From a virus, in the IMG/VR virus record IMGVR_UViG_3300037333_000056, positions 1-64,000 of that record: a DNA stretch of 64,000 bases; one strand, 5' to 3'. This document shows positions 4,997 through 35,551 of this stretch, piece after piece; the stretch's first letter is position 1; each line of letters opens with the position of its first letter. The translations under genes were made by a program, and so were the position numbers. The notes beneath the pieces were generated by a model. The model made no database searches, was not told the origin of the DNA, and was given only the letters and a program-made list of their open reading frames with translations.

Positions 4997-5083
4997 AGAA
5001 CCAGCTTACACTTAGCTATCTGAGTCGGATAATAAACTGGTTCTAATTATCTATGTGCATATTTATGTGGATATAGATAATTA
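4997..5083. repeat. Tandem hairpins (AGAACCAG/CTGGTTCT family member followed by a long AT-rich stem-loop)
   Basis: AGAACCAG 4997-5004 / CTGGTTCT 5037-5044; AATTATCTAT...ATAGATAATT immediately after. Confidence 0.6.
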
Positions 5084-5776: not shown

Positions 5777-5779
5777 TAC

Positions 5780-5968
5780 ATGAAGAAGCAACTATCACTT
5801 AAGTCAAGAACTTATATAGTAGGTGATTCTATACATATTAGGACAACAAAAGTACCATTAAATATGTATAGATCAATTAGAACTGAATTATGCAAATATA
5901 ATTTTTATTTAGCTTCAGAAATTATGTTCACTAAAAATATTAGATTACAACATGTTATAACATTGTGA
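5780..5968 (+). CDS. Small MxKQ-family protein
   Basis: MKKQLSLK. Confidence 0.6.
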   Translation: MKKQLSLKSRTYIVGDSIHIRTTKVPLNMYRSIRTELCKYNFYLASEIMFTKNIRLQHVITL

Positions 5969-6006
5969 TATACTATCGTAAAATATTTACATAAGGACGA
6001 TAACAA

Positions 6007-6198
6007 ATGAGACAATTTAGCTTACTAATAGGAGAGAATAATGACATATACTACATAAAAGATAGAGAAAACAAGATAGTAGATATATTCTACTCAAAAA
6101 ATGAATGCACAAATAAAATACAACAATTAAATAAATCAAAGGAAAACAGTGAAATTAATAAGCAAAGATGGAAGATTCGCCGCAGTAGTGAACAGTAG
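6007..6198 (+). CDS. Small MxKQ-like protein
   Basis: MRQFSLLI; AAGGA RBS; W near the C-terminus. Confidence 0.6.
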   Translation: MRQFSLLIGENNDIYYIKDRENKIVDIFYSKNECTNKIQQLNKSKENSEINKQRWKIRRSSEQ

Positions 6199-6592
6199 AA
6201 AAGGAAAAATTATTGTAAAAAATGGCTTTGTGTCATTTACAAAAGGAAACATTTCTGGTGCAGAAAAAGTAAGACCAGATATTTTAGAGAACTATTTTAA
6301 TGTTCCAGAGAAAGTAGCATCTTGGTAAGATGACGCACTCTGAAATTAAAAATGCAGTATACATGTCAATGTTTGCATATACAACGCACAGGAAGAATAA
6401 ACTATCACTAGATAATTGGTTATATAATAACGAAGTTAGAAGAACCAACAAAATAGCAAAAGAAATTATGATTGCATATAATAAGATGGAATCTGAAAGA
6501 CGATAAAAGGAGAAAGATGGAATACACAATTACAATTACAGCTGACGGTGCTACATTTGTACCGACAAGAAAAAAGTAAATAAGGAATATAT

Positions 6593-7204
6593 ATGAACAT
6601 GCAAGTATTATTATTGTCGATAGGATATATAGTTGCGTCATATTATATATTTAAGAGATACATATTATACGTTAGAGAAGAAGAAAGCTGCGAAGCAGAG
6701 AAGCTTATAGAAAAAGTTAACAAAATAAATAGAGCAAAAAGCGAAATAGAATTCAATAATAATTATGACAAAATAATGGACAAACTTACAGATGGGAATC
6801 ATTCAAGAAATAGCAAATCACAAGATATAGCACAACAAAATGATACAAGAGGCGATACAAAAAAGAAGCAAAAAGAAAGCAAAAAGAAAGCACATAACAA
6901 GAAGAATATAAAGCAACATAGAAAAGTTATACGAAACAGAGATAGACTTAAGCGTAAGCATAGCGAAAAAGCTACTGTATCTAAAGAGCTTAGAGATGCT
7001 ACACTAAGTAGGGATAATTATATGTGCGTGCTTTGCTTTAGCTCCACAAGACTAAACATACATCACAAAACATACAAGAATGTTCCAAACGAAGAGCCTG
7101 AAGACGTAGTAACTCTATGCGAAGAATGCCACACTAACTTGCATAATGATATAGGGTTTCCGCAAAACTATAAAGATAAAGAGAATATATTATATTGGAG
7201 ATAG
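6593..7204 (+). CDS. HNH endonuclease with N-terminal hydrophobic anchor
   Basis: RDNYMCVLC...IHHKTY...TLCEECHTNLH. Confidence 0.8.
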   Translation: MNMQVLLLSIGYIVASYYIFKRYILYVREEESCEAEKLIEKVNKINRAKSEIEFNNNYDKIMDKLTDGNHSRNSKSQDIAQQNDTRGDTKKKQKESKKKAHNKKNIKQHRKVIRNRDRLKRKHSEKATVSKELRDATLSRDNYMCVLCFSSTRLNIHHKTYKNVPNEEPEDVVTLCEECHTNLHNDIGFPQNYKDKENILYWR

Positions 7205-7208
7205 AATG

Positions 7209-7892
7209 TTACCATTCTACTCCGTAGCCATCTAAGCTTTTATCGAGATCCATAATGTTTGAAGCATTAATATTCTTAGATGAATTTATTCCTACTCGCT
7301 TTATTGGTGATGGATTAACTTTCTGAACAGGCATTGTTCTAGTTTTAGCTATATTTGTTTTTTTTACACTAACTTTCGAGCTAAATAGTGTGCCAGCATC
7401 AGATGCTGACTGAACAAGTCTACCTGTATTTCCTGAGATAATACTGTTAACAACAGGCGTATCTCCAATATTAGGAATAATGAGTTTTCCGCCTAGACCA
7501 GTATTTGATCTTGGTCCATATTTTGAATAATCAATATGTTTGTCACTAGACTGTCTACTATTAAGTGGAAGACTCATTCCGTCATTACTGGATAGATATC
7601 CGTCTACAGAACCAGGTGAGACGTAACTATAGTTTCTATTTGCGAATGGCAATGACAGCCCATCTTCTTTAGTTAGATATGTCTGATTATGAACAGTAGG
7701 TTGCTCTATATCAATTAAATCTTCTGGCTTGGCATTAAGATAGCTTGATGAATCTTTTGCATAACTAGATGATGGTGCGTTGTTGCTTGATATGTATTTA
7801 TTGTTTCCAGTCTTTGGATACGAATCTGTAAATATATCATTGATACCTACAGACCTAAATAAGTTAATAACTGATTGATTTGGTTTGTACAT
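7209..7892 (-). CDS. Putative virion/ejection protein
   Basis: Cys-free, S/N-rich; co-oriented with the lysozyme-like gene, opposite to the flanking genes. Confidence 0.5.
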   Translation of the reverse strand: MYKPNQSVINLFRSVGINDIFTDSYPKTGNNKYISSNNAPSSSYAKDSSSYLNAKPEDLIDIEQPTVHNQTYLTKEDGLSLPFANRNYSYVSPGSVDGYLSSNDGMSLPLNSRQSSDKHIDYSKYGPRSNTGLGGKLIIPNIGDTPVVNSIISGNTGRLVQSASDAGTLFSSKVSVKKTNIAKTRTMPVQKVNPSPIKRVGINSSKNINASNIMDLDKSLDGYGVEW

Positions 7893-7923
7893 TTATTTGT
7901 TTCCTTATATTATTATGGTTTAA

Positions 7924-8673
7924 TTAGTTTCCGAATACATACTTAACATTCATTGGCCTGCCTTTGTATCCTTCCCATCTAGCACGAGTCTCCATAAATA
8001 TTTTTTTCTGAGATTGGGACAAATCATTATATCTTAGTTTATCTACATCTATACCTTTTCTTCTGTATTCAGACAATATACTGTCATACATTTTAGTATC
8101 AGTTTGGTATTGCCTGAAAGCTGAAGATATTGGAGTAGAATTATATCTCTTACTTGACATTAAAGAATCCATTGCTTTCCATCCATCATCAGGAGTAGCA
8201 AAATACAATTGAGCTCTATCGCCTTTGTCTCCAGTATTGCTCTTAACAATTGCAGCAGCATTATATAATAGTTTTCCAGACATTCCTGTAATATTTCCAG
8301 GGTTGTTATTATCTGTTGATTTGTTTATTTTACTTCTTTCTCTAATGATTGTTGGTGTACCATTAATAACATGAATTGAACCATTAGATGGTAAATATTC
8401 AATACTGCTATCTACATTATAAAATGAATCGCCACCTAATCCAGGTCCTGTAGATAAAGACATTCTATCTTGAGGTAAAACATCTCTTGCGTGAGCAGGA
8501 ATATCTTGATATGGTATAGTCTCATTTGAATGTATAAGATTTAAATGAGACTTTGGAACAGAGATGCTTGGAACAGTATGTAGGTTGTATCCTCCAAGGC
8601 CAGAAGGATTATCTTTTCTGGAAACATTTCTAGATAAATCAAATCCAGATGTACCTGTAATCTTCAATGGCAT
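7924..8673 (-). CDS. Putative virion-associated lysozyme-like peptidoglycan hydrolase
   Basis: NNNPGNI...FATPDDGWKAM...WEG motif set; GGAG RBS; own TGGTATAAT promoter. Confidence 0.6.
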   Translation of the reverse strand: MPLKITGTSGFDLSRNVSRKDNPSGLGGYNLHTVPSISVPKSHLNLIHSNETIPYQDIPAHARDVLPQDRMSLSTGPGLGGDSFYNVDSSIEYLPSNGSIHVINGTPTIIRERSKINKSTDNNNPGNITGMSGKLLYNAAAIVKSNTGDKGDRAQLYFATPDDGWKAMDSLMSSKRYNSTPISSAFRQYQTDTKMYDSILSEYRRKGIDVDKLRYNDLSQSQKKIFMETRARWEGYKGRPMNVKYVFGN

Positions 8674-8709
8674 ACTTAAATCTCCTATATTATGTGATTT
8701 TATTATGCT

Positions 8710-8718
8710 ATTATACCA
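8710..8718 (-). promoter_or_regulatory. Extended -10 host sigma70-type promoter (TGGTATAAT)
   Basis: Reverse complement of ATTATACCA upstream of the 8673 start. Confidence 0.5.
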
Positions 8719-8740
8719 AACTTAAACAAAAAGGACACAC

Positions 8741-9550
8741 ATGAACAACACAAAAGAAGCATGCAGAGACTATGAGCTAATGCTACTGAATGCAGCAAGA
8801 TATTCAGGAAACAAGAAAAAAGAACAGAAAATATTTTCAGCGTCTATGGTAGGAAACGACTTGCTGCAAAATTATTATAAATATATGTACGGATCTTCTG
8901 ACCAGCAGAAATTCGGAGCAAACACATTTGGTTCAATATATCAACTAGGTGTGGACAAAGCTATTGAGGACTCAGAACTATTCTCAGAAAGATACACTAG
9001 TGCCTTCAGACATCAAGTTACACTATCTAATGGATGGATTATATCTGGAGAGATGGACCAAATAGATAATAAACTAAAGGTAATATTTGATAACAAAGTA
9101 ACAACTGGTTCCAAAATTAAGACACTAAAGAAAGAGGGAAAACATAGTCAATATGCACTACAAATGGCAACGTATCAGTACTTGCTATACGACTACCAAA
9201 AGAATATATTAAACATAGAAGAACCTGATGTCTACTCTGCAGTACTTGCAATTATAGACAAAAAACATACTCTTTTTACAAAGAAAGTTGAATTCGAACA
9301 ACTTACATTTATGGAAATGGATACTTTTGAAATAGATGAAATGAAAACTATACTATTAGATAAAACTAATGAGTTGCAACAATATATTGATTTAGGTCAA
9401 GAACCGGCTCAATGTGATAATCTATTTTTCTTTGGACAAACAGGATCTAGGAAACCATATAGATGCTTACATTTTTGTGACTTCTCATCAAACTGTAAAT
9501 ATTTTGACAAAAGTGGGAAAATGAAAATGAATACGTTAATGGGGCTATAG
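8741..9550 (+). CDS. PD-(D/E)XK Cas4-like exonuclease
   Basis: GEMD...FDNKVT, YALQMATY, C-terminal C...CxxxCxxxxxC. Confidence 0.8.
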   Translation: MNNTKEACRDYELMLLNAARYSGNKKKEQKIFSASMVGNDLLQNYYKYMYGSSDQQKFGANTFGSIYQLGVDKAIEDSELFSERYTSAFRHQVTLSNGWIISGEMDQIDNKLKVIFDNKVTTGSKIKTLKKEGKHSQYALQMATYQYLLYDYQKNILNIEEPDVYSAVLAIIDKKHTLFTKKVEFEQLTFMEMDTFEIDEMKTILLDKTNELQQYIDLGQEPAQCDNLFFFGQTGSRKPYRCLHFCDFSSNCKYFDKSGKMKMNTLMGL

Positions 9551-31349: not shown

Positions 31350-32021
31350 ATGGCAGAACCAATATTAGTATTGGCAAAATCAGGATCTGGAAAAACTACT
31401 TCGCTTAGGAATTTAAACCCTAAAGACGTAATGGTTATCCAACCAAGGAAAAAGAGGCTTCCTTTCCCAAATAATGGATGGAACAAATGGGATAAAGACA
31501 CCTCAGAAGGGTCAATATTTCAAGTAAATACATTCTCTGGAGTTAAAGCAGTGCTTGCTAAAATGCAAGAAGTAGGGAAGAAAGTTGTAGTTATAGACGA
31601 CTTTGTCTATATCATGGCTCAAAGAGTAATGGACGATATAGACGACAAAGGATACGACAAATGGACTCAGCTGGCTGCAGACTTTAACAGTATGATGACA
31701 TTTATTGACGACATGGACGAAAATATGAGAGTGTATATTTTAACACATACAGATAGCGATGAGATGGGTAATGTAAAAATGAAAACAGCAGGAAAGCTTA
31801 TTGATAACCTATTGACTCCAGAAGGAATGTTCAATATAGTATTTGGTATGGCGAAAACTGATTCAGATTCATTCTTTCTAACTAAGGGATCTACAATGGA
31901 TCCATATAAAACTCCAATGGGAATGTTTAAAGACAAACAGATTCCTAACGATTTAAAAATGGTGGATAATACTATTTGCGATTTCTATGGCATAGACAAT
32001 AAATTAACACCTGTTTCTTAG
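31350..32021 (+). CDS. AAA_24 / Sak4-like ATPase (N4 gp44-like)
   Basis: AKSGSGKTTSLRNL, VVIDD, KGYDKW, KTAGK, KTPMGMF..IPNDL. Confidence 0.88.
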   Translation: MAEPILVLAKSGSGKTTSLRNLNPKDVMVIQPRKKRLPFPNNGWNKWDKDTSEGSIFQVNTFSGVKAVLAKMQEVGKKVVVIDDFVYIMAQRVMDDIDDKGYDKWTQLAADFNSMMTFIDDMDENMRVYILTHTDSDEMGNVKMKTAGKLIDNLLTPEGMFNIVFGMAKTDSDSFFLTKGSTMDPYKTPMGMFKDKQIPNDLKMVDNTICDFYGIDNKLTPVS

Positions 32022-32103
32022 TGTTTAGGACGCAAAATTAGAGCTTATCTAGACTACAGATGATACCTAGTATTGTTTGGTCTAATTAACCAGTACAGAA
32101 CCA

Positions 32104-32424
32104 GTGAATGGAAAGGATTATATTGTGAACAATGGAAAAGATTTCAATTATGCACTTCAGATGATAAAAGAAAATAGATCAGTTAGAAGACGAGGAAATA
32201 AAGATAGAACAATTTCAATAAGTTACATACGAAACAGCTTTGCAAAAGCACAAGGGTATTCAGGAGGATTTAAAACAACCAATGAATTACTTAGTAATGG
32301 AAAAGATGTAGATATAAAAGCATATATAATGGAATATGGCAACGACGGAAAGAAAAGTATATTTGTTCCAACTAGCGATGACATGTTTTCAGAAGACTGG
32401 GAAGTTGTTAAAGACACTGAATAA
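32104..32424 (+). CDS. DUF2829 protein (Tad2-like anti-Thoeris sponge candidate)
   Basis: F..AL..IK....VRR.G at the N-terminus and FVPTSDDMFSEDWEVV at the C-terminus. Confidence 0.75.
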   Translation: MNGKDYIVNNGKDFNYALQMIKENRSVRRRGNKDRTISISYIRNSFAKAQGYSGGFKTTNELLSNGKDVDIKAYIMEYGNDGKKSIFVPTSDDMFSEDWEVVKDTE

Positions 32425-32913
32425 CCAAATGCAGAACCAGTAACTAAGAGTATTAAATAAAAAGTATACTTGCCTCTGGTATGAAGATGTTATTGAAGAT
32501 ACGCATCGTATTTCGAAGATATAATGGCTTGCCTTTACAGCTTTTGCTGTAAAGGTTTCGTGCGTAGCCGAAATCATTATTCAAGAAAGCGAAGCGTAAT
32601 CTGATATGGCATCTGTAATACCAGAATGATTTAGATAATAATGATAGAGGAGTATAGTTTACTGGTTCTTTTTGAATCTTAATCTATATCTCATACCTCT
32701 ACAATTTGATATTTCACCAAACTTCCGTTCCTCAACAAATTATGATTTCTTCTGCCGTTCTTCGAACAGCATCAGAACCACTCACGTTATCAAATTATGT
32801 TTGCGGTACGGTTTTGCCTCATATCATTGTAGAGTACGGGGTAGGTAATTTGGGATTATAAGTATAAGTTATATTTACCGTATTAATTGATACGAATTAC
32901 ATAAATATGAAAG

Positions 32914-33052
32914 TGTTCACGTGTGAACAGTCGAGAATTATTCAAGAATCCTGTGCCGTATAGATAAATAGTATGTTTAGTGTAAACTTTTATGCATTAT
33001 TCGATCGAATAATGTGTTATTCTAATAAAGATAGGCTTATTCGATCGAATAA
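32914..33052. repeat. Operator/parS-like palindromes
   Basis: TGTTCAC-GT-GTGAACA 32914-32929; CATTATTCGATCGAATAATG 32995-33014; TTATTCGATCGAATAA 33037-33052. Confidence 0.85.
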
Positions 33053-33067
33053 AGAATGCTCTCTGGC

Positions 33068-33096
33068 TTGACTTAATTCAGGAAAAGTAGTATAAT
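33068..33096 (+). promoter_or_regulatory. Near-consensus sigma70 promoter
   Basis: TTGACT-17 nt-TATAAT upstream of the ParB-like gene. Confidence 0.8.
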
Positions 33097-33118
33097 ACAT
33101 TAACATTTCGGAATAGAA

Positions 33119-34000
33119 ATGAATCACACGAAGGATTTCCTAATGGAAAAAGACAAAAAAATCAGGAATGAAGAGATATTCGCAAAGAGGATTGAAGAGG
33201 TTGAAATTCATACAATGGCTGAAATCAACCCTATGCAGAGCAAGGATGATTTTGTTGCTCTAAAATATAGTATAGAGCAGATAGGACAACAAGAACCAGT
33301 AGTTATGTTTAAAGGCAAACTGGTAGACGGGAGGAATAGACTTAAAGCAATTAAAGAGCTATATAATGAAGTTGCAGAAGAAGAAAAATTCAAATATAGA
33401 ATGGTCAAATATAAAAAGCTACCGACAACCTTAAGTATATCAGAACTTGAAGAGATCATTATAGGTAAAGAGACAAGAAGACATAAGACTTCTACTCAAA
33501 AAGCTGTTCAAGCAATGAACTACTATATCAAAAAAACAGAAGAAGGCATTGATATAAACATGACAAAAGTAGGGAAAATATTTGGAGCTTCACAAGCACA
33601 GTTGTCTAGAGCAATAACTTGCAGGAAGGCTGCAGGAGAGCTAGTGATTCAAAGACTTTTTAATGGTGAAAAGATAACGATCAGTAAATCAAAAAAAGAT
33701 GGAACTATCTATAAAACTCAAACAGACAGCTTAGATGCAATTACTAAGTATTATAATGCAATAAATAAAAGTAACGCCTTAGGAAGATCTTCAGAACAGA
33801 CTATTAGCTCAATAGAATTAAGCTATTCACAGATACTAGCAACAGAAATAATAGACGACATGTCATACGATGGGATAAATTACTTAATAAATATATTAGA
33901 GTCAAATAAAGACACACTAAAAGTAAATTATAACGTAACAAAAATGAAAACAGTAACAGGATTAGAAACAGTCTCGACAATAAATAAAGATAGTCAATAA
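33119..34000 (+). CDS. ParB/Srx N-terminal domain protein with HTH
   Basis: LKYSIEQIGQQEPVV...LVDGRNRLKA; RRH.T..QKA; HTH. Confidence 0.8.
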   Translation: MNHTKDFLMEKDKKIRNEEIFAKRIEEVEIHTMAEINPMQSKDDFVALKYSIEQIGQQEPVVMFKGKLVDGRNRLKAIKELYNEVAEEEKFKYRMVKYKKLPTTLSISELEEIIIGKETRRHKTSTQKAVQAMNYYIKKTEEGIDINMTKVGKIFGASQAQLSRAITCRKAAGELVIQRLFNGEKITISKSKKDGTIYKTQTDSLDAITKYYNAINKSNALGRSSEQTISSIELSYSQILATEIIDDMSYDGINYLINILESNKDTLKVNYNVTKMKTVTGLETVSTINKDSQ

Positions 34001-34821
34001 TGGATATTACTTATTTCTCAAGATTTAAGAAGCAAATTGAAAATGAAAATACTAAGATAACAGCAATCAACCTTATAAAAGAAGATGATGCAGGCGGATT
34101 ATACAGCGTCAGCTTTATAAGGTCTTCAGTGATCTATCGAGTAAAGTTCATTGATAATAGAATTTACATAGGCCAGACAGCAAATTTTAACAACAGGATG
34201 GAACAACATAATTTACGCTTTGGTAGTATTAACATAGATAATGTAAAAATAATTAAATATTATGCAGAACAAGATGATGAGATAAATTACATAAGAAAGT
34301 ATAGAAAACGATATGGCTGGGACAATGTAGTAAATGTCGATAGAGGTTCTGTGGTTCCAGCGATGACAACAGATATTATCTCAAGGTGGTTCAATAGAAC
34401 ACCTAGCCAACTAGCAATAAAGTCTTGGTATTATTATTGCAATAAAGAGAACAAGTGCACATTGGCTGAAGCTGCTGCGAAAACTGGTGCTTCTGTTGCT
34501 AACGTAAAAAGAGCAAACAAGATAGGTGGAGTCAAGCAGAACCAGTTTAAACGTCCAGATATACTTGATCTATTGTATAATGGCGAAAAGTTTCCATTAG
34601 ATAATTTTATGGAAACAGATTCTCTTGCAGCAATTGAAAACTTCCTAAGAAAGCAAGAATTATCAAGAAAAGAAAAACTAACTGGGATAGCTGTTAACAA
34701 AGAAGAGCTATCAGAAGCAGAGAATGACATAGTAGATTCAATACTAATTAAGATAGACGGCGAAGCAAACAGAGTAAAAAAGGCTATAGCGAGCAAAATA
34801 TATGCACAGGTAATGCAATAA
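34000..34821 (+). CDS. GIY-YIG domain protein with a ParB-like C-terminal HTH
   Basis: VIY...IYIGQT.N...R..QH; C-terminal half aligns with the upstream ParB-like protein. Confidence 0.7.
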   Translation: MDITYFSRFKKQIENENTKITAINLIKEDDAGGLYSVSFIRSSVIYRVKFIDNRIYIGQTANFNNRMEQHNLRFGSINIDNVKIIKYYAEQDDEINYIRKYRKRYGWDNVVNVDRGSVVPAMTTDIISRWFNRTPSQLAIKSWYYYCNKENKCTLAEAAAKTGASVANVKRANKIGGVKQNQFKRPDILDLLYNGEKFPLDNFMETDSLAAIENFLRKQELSRKEKLTGIAVNKEELSEAENDIVDSILIKIDGEANRVKKAIASKIYAQVMQ

Positions 34822-34924
34822 AATAACAACTATAGCAAACAAAGAATACCTGAGACGGTAAGTTGATCACAAAAATGAATGTGAGAAAGATAAATAAAAA
34901 CAAAATAAATAAAAGGAAATAAAC

Positions 34925-35551
34925 ATGAGTAACATTTTTGACGAATTAGGATTAGACGCAGCAGCATACACAGAGGCAGAAGCACAAGAGGTATCATCAG
35001 GATTTGAGGTATTACCATCTGGTTCTTACGTAGCTGAAGTAAAACTACTTGCAACATTTACAACTGAAAAAGGTGCTGGTATGATGCTAGCAGACATAGA
35101 AGTGACAAATGGAGATGATAAACGCACAATTACAGTGTACCAAAACGTTAAGAAAAAGAATGGTGAGGCAAACCCTATTGGAACTGCTACATTCAAGCAT
35201 ATCATCGAAGCAACTGGTTCTGAGATGGCAGCACTGACAACAAAGAAAGAAACAATTAAAGCATATGGTAAAGACGTAGAAGGTACTGTTGTTAATGGTA
35301 TTGCTGGAAAGAAATTATTGGCTCTAGTAAGACACGTATTTGCTGAGGGTGAAGACTACGAAAACTTCAATGAGATTGAAGGATATGTAAAGACAGACGG
35401 TACAAACTCAAAAGGCGAAAACCAGCTTGATGCATTTAAGGAAAAGATTGAAAAGAATCCTATTCTAAAAAGAAAACCGAAAGCAGGGGCTAAACAACAG
35501 TCCACTACAGATGCAGGAACAACTGCAGCCGACGTAGCCAGCATGCTATAG
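34925..35551 (+). CDS. Single-stranded DNA-binding protein (N4 gp45/DUF669-like)
   Basis: FEVLPSGSY.A.V, ENFNEI; synteny with the gp44-like ATPase. Confidence 0.7.
   Translation: MSNIFDELGLDAAAYTEAEAQEVSSGFEVLPSGSYVAEVKLLATFTTEKGAGMMLADIEVTNGDDKRTITVYQNVKKKNGEANPIGTATFKHIIEATGSEMAALTTKKETIKAYGKDVEGTVVNGIAGKKLLALVRHVFAEGEDYENFNEIEGYVKTDGTNSKGENQLDAFKEKIEKNPILKRKPKAGAKQQSTTDAGTTAADVASML

Follow-up and report, generated by a model that had tools for sequence, protein, structure and literature searches.

The DNA stretch analysed here (the window, 64 kb) covers positions 1 to 64,000 of the viral record IMGVR_UViG_3300037333_000056, which is 73.7 kb long and 88% complete. On its plus strand it encodes a ParB-like protein (P0001, an open reading frame (ORF) of 293 residues at 33119-34000) and, directly following, a GIY-YIG nuclease (P0002, an ORF of 273 residues at 34000-34821), and the C-terminal halves of these two proteins are homologous DNA-binding modules of the ParB type. 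Judging from the sequences of their relatives, heads and modules of such proteins have been exchanged often and recently. The reading which we favour, with moderate confidence, would make P0002 a free-standing GIY-YIG nuclease of the homing or competitor-exclusion kind with a captured ParB module as its targeting half. Among the functions suggested for the pair by an earlier sequence-only reading of this DNA, a selfish or competitor-exclusion role is the one that describes the data best.

The C-terminal helix-turn-helix (HTH) parts of the two proteins had been described in that reading as paralogous. Both ORFs and the peptide strings quoted for the claim are present as stated. The pairwise alignment which had been proposed as a check is in part supportive: BLASTP aligns residues 122-211 of P0001 with residues 132-215 of P0002 at an E-value of 2e-4, but at only 25% identity, which is modest alone. 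In a comparison restricted to the C-terminal halves, hhalign gives 97.3% and an E-value of 1.8e-11 over 83 columns for the P0001 family against the P0002 family, and 95.5% and 1.6e-8 for the P0001-family half against two GIY-YIG proteins alone. A profile built from 50 ParB-like sequences matches just two places in the 73.7-kb genome, namely P0001 (260 bits) and the C-terminal half of P0002 (34396-34818, 119 bits, E-value 5.6e-36). The structural models of both proteins show the same order of elements, which is a box-III-like helix, the HTH, a further helix (RPDILDLLYNG or ELVIQRLFNG), a beta-hairpin and a helix starting with TDSL. In P0002 the module comprises residues ~128-273 (34381-34821, plus strand) with the box-III-like helix, the HTH (TLAEAAAKTG / ASVANVKRANKIG), the RPDILDLLYNGEK helix, a short beta-hairpin, the TDSLAAIENF helix and a long C-terminal helix at residues 239-272. 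The part common to both proteins amounts to ~85-100 residues within the C-terminal ~145 of P0002, and the extreme C-terminal helices differ. On the strength of these alignments we regard the homology of the two halves as secure, and profile as well as model evidence agrees with the claim that one and the same DNA-binding module stands under two heads, a ParB head (CTPase fold) in P0001 and a GIY-YIG head in P0002.

The idea of a local pair acting on one site did not stand. The modules of P0001 and P0002 are 33% identical over 101 residues, and their second HTH helices are different (SQAQLSRAITCRK in P0001, SVANVKRANKIGG in P0002). The module of P0002 is 60% identical to those of ParB-like proteins from other contigs, the closest being P0004 and P0005. 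An origin of the pair by local tandem duplication was rejected, as the modules of P0001 and P0002 are not nearest relatives.

A search with P0002 revealed one full-length homologue, P0003, and several ParB-N proteins of ~240 residues, the C-terminal halves of which are 44-54% identical to that of P0002. By hmmsearch of 1.84 billion representatives, about ten further proteins combining a GIY-YIG head with the module and about 40 combining it with a ParB N-domain could be identified. Across metagenomes, GIY-YIG heads of a single clade, together with a T5orf172 head, are found on at least four ParB module subtypes. The modules of the nuclease P0022 and the ParB-like protein P0026 are 97% identical over 152 residues, those of P0023 and P0068 99% over 146 residues, and those of a T5orf172 fusion from contig L014 and P0045 80% over 138 residues; in each of these three cases the heads are unrelated and the genes lie on separate contigs. 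The T5orf172 domain (PF10544) of the L014 fusion (6722-7525, identical with P0049) scores 22.5 bits at a cut-off of 20. Furthermore, P0029 bears a module of the P0001 type, and P0033 one of the type found in the ParB-like protein of contig L002. In a tree of the module core, which omits six long-branch rows, the ten nuclease rows need ten label changes, and a single clade of nuclease modules is rejected (log-likelihood difference 380, p 0.0001 in the approximately unbiased test). The junction between head and module is always located just ahead of a conserved T-x-x-Q-(L/K)-A-I helix.

An exchange of this kind can also be followed in the DNA of contig L004, which ends inside a GIY-YIG gene. The final 45 bp of this truncated gene are 91% identical on the DNA level to the start of the P0001 module, while the remainder resembles the P0002 head at the protein level only. 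The start of the chimera with its P0001-type module is overlapped by a gene of 62 residues for a ribbon-helix-helix protein (5778-5966; CopG-like, weak Pfam matches). Stand-alone T5orf172 nuclease-like genes adjoin ParB-like genes, or are found within 3 kb of them, in L011 (860-1417) and L012/L013 (9378-9785; 45.6 bits for 860-1414 of L011 and 21.2 bits for 9378-9782 of L012, cut-off 20), and the link between ParB-like proteins and the GIY-YIG clan therefore extends beyond the fusions. A protein of 1809 residues, P0065, was also considered as a relative; it is repetitive and has no meaningful relation to the family.

The ParB-like protein likely starts at M9 (33143), since this start fits the family alignment as well as the called gene P0009 and is preceded by GAAGGA. 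Its ParB/Srx N-domain (~33176-33472) contains the motifs DGRNR (residues 70-74) and ETRRH (118-122), and is followed by the DNA-binding C-terminal module (33470-33997) with the HTH at residues ~148-172, the beta-hairpin at 186-202 and the C-terminal helices. As a single sequence P0001 stays below the Pfam cut-off for ParB_N. The profile of 50 relatives, compared with the PDB, matches Spo0J (4umk, E-value 1.4e-5) and ParB of B. subtilis (6sdk, 3e-4), and the alignment to both structures spans the N-domain, box III and the HTH. The AlphaFold2 model (predicted local distance difference test score (pLDDT) 90.4) is matched by Foldseek to ParB, Noc and KorB with a probability of 1.0 over ~170-180 columns. 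P0001 thus shows both the N-terminal ParB (ParB/Srx, CTPase) fold and a contiguous central HTH. In the alignment, the motifs DGRNR (in relatives DGRHR) and ETRRH take the places of GERRxR and of ENxxR of box III, with differences at several positions. A profile of the C-terminal module alone gives weak generic HTH matches only in the PDB (MarR 1e-3, P1 ParB 0.8).

A function of the pair as a partition device, which had also been considered, is unlikely. No AAA_31/ParA match is found in the 73.7-kb record, whereas the control search was positive in 14 of 14 genomes, and the phage is of the N4-like lytic type, with an N4-like genome layout that includes an ORF of 2800 residues, the size of a virion RNA polymerase.

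The nuclease head of P0002 occupies 34000-34395 and consists of an N-terminal extension of ~40 residues and the GIY-YIG core (residues 42-115, 34123-34344). The match to the Pfam GIY-YIG family (PF01541) reaches 24.6 bits at a cut-off of 22.6, and is likewise above it in the genome scan (23.9 bits). The AlphaFold2 model has a pLDDT of 90.7. Its top match in VIA-align, the list of which is filled by matches of the head, is the catalytic domain of I-TevI (1ln0, Z 7.0, root mean square deviation 2.7, 70 residues); UvrC (1ycz) follows with Z 5.0, and Foldseek assigns the head to I-TevI with a probability of 0.97. With the whole P0002 model, Foldseek finds no significant global match. Among P0002, P0003 and the L004 homologue, no variation is seen at residues Y46, Y56-I57-G58, R66, H70, E94 and N112. 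The roles of the catalytic Arg, Glu and Asn of I-TevI and of the GIY-YIG motif are taken from the literature (PMC2988022), and the mapping of the P0002 residues to them is our own. As this catalytic set is invariant among homologues that are only 34-43% identical, the P0002 enzyme is probably active. Neither a NUMOD nor a zinc-finger match to Pfam is present in P0002, the C-terminal half being the ParB-type module instead. Residues 1-41 and 123-132 (34000-34122 and 34366-34395) form an N-terminal helix, two long strands and a trailing strand which lie against the GIY-YIG core. All chimeras keep this extension, and its structural matches, of the VirB8/NTF2-like type, are only middling (Z ~6).

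One could imagine that P0002 is a non-working nuclease, which acts as a regulator or as a dominant-negative partner that competes with ParB-like proteins, or poisons them, via the shared half. The DNA-binding domain of I-TevI is an operator-binding repressor as well (PMC2988022; PMC2330249), by which the enzyme doubles as an autorepressor (PMC2988022), and the Pfam GIY-YIG match of P0002 spans residues 44-72 only. Such a role is nevertheless very unlikely in view of the full set of catalytic residues kept in such distant homologues, of a head that models confidently as an I-TevI-like fold, and of a second, unrelated nuclease head (T5orf172) which is fused to the same kind of module.

Both genes are part of an accessory island of 2.9 kb (32022-34924, plus strand), which contains a Tad2-like gene, a non-coding gap of ~690 nt, the ParB-like gene and the GIY-YIG gene. 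It is flanked on the left by a gene for a Sak4-like ATPase (31350-32021) and on the right by the gene for a single-stranded DNA-binding protein (SSB, 34925-35551), the putative counterparts of gp44 and gp45 of N4. In the closest relative found, contig L006 (Sak4 56% identical), the genes for Sak4 (7001-7660), SSB (7912-8562), RusA and a helicase follow each other, and only an ORF of 72 residues lies between the first two. The window segment 32022-34924 is therefore an inserted island without counterpart in L006, which agrees with the earlier placing of the pair between two genes that are neighbours in N4; the pair is part of an insertion between replication genes which otherwise adjoin each other. 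The presence/absence pattern of a homing enzyme is seen here, as the island is missing in L006 and the pair occurs again in L002, a viral contig of 113 kb which is not syntenic with the window.

In L002 the end of a ParB-like gene of 259 residues is overlapped by the gene for P0003, and in L014 the T5orf172-module fusion overlaps a ParB-like gene in the same way, with a second ParB-like gene downstream. The whole arrangement in L014 covers 3 kb (5995-8960) and comprises the first ParB-like gene, the overlapping fusion P0049, an ORF of 126 residues and the second ParB-like gene, which is of another subtype. In the window the two genes are coupled, as had been noted before, by an overlap of one base (TAATG, stop codon 33998-34000, ATG 34000-34002). 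The nuclease module and the module of the adjacent ParB-like protein are 33% identical in the window, 28% in L002 and 38% in L014, which means that they differ in subtype in all three readable contexts. Presence and absence in relatives, another check that had been proposed, gives a divided answer: the island as such is missing in L006, but the ParB-like gene is found without a nuclease in L003, L005, L010 and L015, and the nuclease in L004 has no adjacent ParB gene.

These contexts have to be considered in respect of a cooperative two-component system working within one phage. In such a system the ParB-like protein would load at local palindromes and recruit, position or restrain the nuclease via the related C-terminal halves, and the cut or nick would serve the phage's own DNA, e.g. 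at the start of replication, in recombination or in the processing of the genome. In favour of this, the genes overlap and are co-transcribed in three unrelated phages, and the C-terminal fold is common to both proteins. RepL-like winged-helix genes (PF05732) adjoining ParB-like genes in L002 (5641-6162), L003 (3344-3868; 27.8 bits) and L005 (6175-6507; 20.4 bits, cut-off 20.3) would also fit, and this adjacency in three contigs hints at a replication or maintenance module. However, the adjacent modules share merely 28-38% identity and differ in their C-terminal helices and second HTH helices, each gene also occurs alone as described above, and modules 97-99% identical to nuclease modules are found on other contigs. 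Moreover, the nearest N4-like relative does without the island, which places it outside the core replication machinery. We consider a cooperative system unlikely, and the same applies to the clamp-plus-nuclease machine on shared local palindromes that had been suggested, given modules of 33% identity and genes which also occur singly. A RepL-like initiator was not found in the genome of the window, and a RepL-ParB replicon was dropped as an explanation for this locus for that reason.

The ParB-like gene has its own sigma70-type promoter, as predicted earlier. The sequence TTGACT-17-TATAAT (33068-33096, plus strand) matches the consensus at 11 of 12 positions; a scan of 5.5 kb gave 24 promoter-like sites, of which this is the best. 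Two operator-like perfect palindromes lie ahead of it. The first (32995-33014) has the core TTATTCGATCGAATAA at 32997-33012 and measures 20 bp when extended, and the second (33037-33052), again TTATTCGATCGAATAA, is located 40 bp past the first and 16 bp ahead of the -35 box. Besides these two (32997 and 33037), the window contains no exact copy of the 16-bp sequence. A further palindrome, TGTTCAC-GT-GTGAACA (32914-32929), may be an additional operator. No palindrome of the window, this one included, matches canonical parS within three mismatches.

Promoters of the form TTGACx-17-TATAAT/TATATT are found directly upstream of the ParB-like genes in L003, L005, L010, L014 and L015. Repeated palindromes precede the promoter in the window as well as in L003, L005, L014 and L015, and are less clear in L010. 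L002 has GCACAT..ATGTGC palindromes ahead of a TGTATAAT -10 box only. The ParB-like genes of L003 and L005 are 58-60% identical to that of P0001 and have analogous palindromes in the equivalent upstream position. The window contains TTATTC-GATC-GAATAA twice, together with the second HTH helix SQAQLSRAITCRK; L005 contains TGTTTC-GATC-GAAACA twice, together with SSAQISRAIICRK; and L003 contains TGTTTC-CACA-GAAACA three times, together with SASQISKVLSLRK. At these three loci of the P0001 type, position and symmetry of the palindromes are kept and the sequence changes along with the second HTH helix, the core GATC going with SRAI.CRK and CACA with SKVLSLRK. This co-variation may be taken as a phylogenetic footprint of binding by the ParB-like proteins, short of proof. 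A perfect palindrome of 46 bp (4997-5042), separate from the two operator-like sites, is present in L005 ~290 bp upstream of the ParB-like gene.

Promoter and operators bear on the possibility that the nuclease attacks DNA other than that of phages, i.e. a host chromosome, plasmids, prophages or satellites with ParB-type sites, as a host-takeover or anti-parasite weapon expressed early from a host-type promoter. With a consensus sigma70 promoter, expression is predicted to start immediately upon entry, the operators of L003 and L005 (type A) share their TGTTTC...GAAACA arms with the consensus of bacterial parS (12 of 16 positions), and many relatives of the module come from short metagenome contigs. 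The sites in the window, on the other hand, do not match canonical parS, nothing ties type B to a cellular ParB, and every module relative with a readable context is located on a viral contig beside phage genes. We regard this explanation as quite unlikely, and like the cooperative system and the inactive regulator it is less well supported than the homing or exclusion reading.

The latter is the best-supported one and accounts jointly for the non-matching subtypes of adjacent genes, for the near-identical modules which are found elsewhere on ParB proteins, for the island and for the autonomous host-type promoter. According to it, P0001 would be the resident ParB-like protein, which most likely binds the two palindromes upstream of its own promoter and autoregulates the operon. 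The targeting half of P0002 would be the DNA-binding and probably dimerising C-terminal half of a phage ParB-like protein instead of a domain of the NUMOD type. Its subtype differs from that of the resident ParB and matches ParB-like proteins of other phages. We infer that P0002 would spare the resident sites. It would instead cut DNA carrying the sites to which the ParB-like protein of a rival allele belongs, and would probably do so in dimeric form at a palindrome. If the break is then mended by recombination with the genome that holds the cassette, ParB allele and nuclease gene would pass into the rival along with flanking cargo such as the Tad2-like gene; where repair fails the rival would simply be destroyed. 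New specificities would arise through recombination at the boundary of head and module. Given a module that probably dimerises on palindromes, the mode of cutting may resemble oligomeric GIY-YIG restriction enzymes rather than the monomeric I-TevI.

Several points weigh against this reading. Only three contexts with nuclease plus ParB could be read, and functional cooperation would be an equally good reason for the conserved overlap of the genes. The known homing enzymes of the GIY-YIG type act as monomers and have extended DNA-binding domains, and a dimeric palindrome cutter would act more like a GIY-YIG restriction enzyme.

In a wider and more speculative form, which we consider possible but put forward tentatively, the ParB-like genes of phages would be alleles in a running gene-drive contest. 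GIY-YIG and T5orf172 heads would repeatedly capture the DNA-binding half of a rival ParB and thereby aim at the operator- or centromere-like sites at the rival's ParB locus, and the cut would drive replacement by a cassette of resistant ParB allele and nuclease, together with cargo such as anti-defence genes. If true, this would be a natural and recurrent retargeting of nucleases by stealing the DNA-recognition domain of the victim.

The favoured reading agrees with what is known of free-standing phage endonucleases: the seg and mob genes offer a precedent for homing without introns and for marker exclusion, and such enzymes also co-convert flanking DNA (PMC2988022). A spread of anti-defence loci driven by SegB has been reported as well (PMC13096335). 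Like SegA-G of T4-like phages and I-TevI, P0002 joins an N-terminal GIY-YIG domain of the I-TevI type to a C-terminal DNA-binding domain; its gene is inserted between conserved genes and missing in relatives, and the DNA-binding parts are modular and exchangeable (PMC2988022; PMC2330249). Where those enzymes have a zinc finger, a NUMOD or an extended monomeric domain, P0002 has an HTH module of the ParB type, one helix of which probably serves dimerisation. Furthermore, such targeting halves reach up to 99% identity with those of ParB-like proteins that stand alone, and coupling of the nuclease gene to a ParB-like gene of a different subtype is a regular feature. Modular GIY-YIG homing enzymes as such are already known.

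With ParB/Spo0J, Noc and KorB, the P0001 family shares the ParB N-domain, the box-III-like ExRRH helix and the central HTH, and the palindromic 16-bp sites at the promoters of the P0001-type genes themselves, some with parS-like arms, recall autoregulation of the KorB type. In contrast to these proteins, the members of the P0001 family are short (~240-290 residues), show DGR(H/N)R where GERRxR would be expected and a beta-hairpin inserted in the DNA-binding domain, lack a ParA partner and are encoded by phages of the lytic type.

Restriction endonucleases with a GIY-YIG domain, among them Eco29kI, offer a further comparison. A P0002 dimer on a palindrome would put two heads on a symmetric site, as in oligomeric enzymes such as Cfr42I (PMC2241918). 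Unlike the restriction enzymes, P0002 has no methyltransferase partner, its DNA-recognition part is unrelated, and it is encoded by a phage. HNH-AP2 homing endonucleases (PMC1564403) also combine a nuclease head with a DNA-binding domain that is found in ordinary DNA-binding proteins. In that case the sharing is ancient and crosses kingdoms, whereas the swaps of ParB modules are recent (97-99% identity), repeated, and occur between neighbouring phage gene families.

A limited literature search revealed no description of nucleases with a ParB-type DNA-binding half, nor of natural pairs of a nuclease and a DNA-binding protein sharing a targeting half that is 97-99% identical. It included a survey of ParB-CTPase fusions from 2025 (PMC12704722), which makes no mention of GIY-YIG or homing and could not detect proteins lacking the CTPase fold. 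In the INPHARED phage set, neither the locus nor P0002 is matched by nucleotide or tblastn searches, and P0001 has only short matches to its ParB N-domain. Scans of viral contigs with the single proteins P0001, P0002 and P0022 gave no match, and PADLOC and NCBIfam assigned no defence system and no named family.

Should the homing or exclusion model hold, a single recombination event would be enough for a phage to re-aim a nuclease, with the recognition domain coming from the very protein whose sites get attacked. The matched pairs, which consist of a ParB version and a nuclease version of one module, are ready-made for finding the targets. The model would also provide a first context for the short ParB-like proteins which lytic phages encode behind host-type promoters and which form a widespread family. 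It might be of interest in genome engineering, too, where fusions of the I-TevI head to other DNA-binding domains are already made.

The first gene of the island (32104-32424, plus strand) encodes a Tad2-like protein of 106 residues with a Thoeris anti-defence 2 domain (PF11195, 38.3 bits at a cut-off of 25). Given this position, co-conversion of the nuclease cassette would include the anti-defence gene. The following gap of ~690 nt (32425-33118) is without a convincing ORF and contains a perfect 10-bp hairpin (32532-32555) and an inverted pair of 11 nt (32433/32659); Rfam and tRNA scans of the locus region gave zero matches. At the right edge of the island, a direct repeat of 19 nt (79% identical, 34784-34802 and 34830-34848) straddles the stop codon of the nuclease gene, and may be either a chance match or the remnant of a junction.

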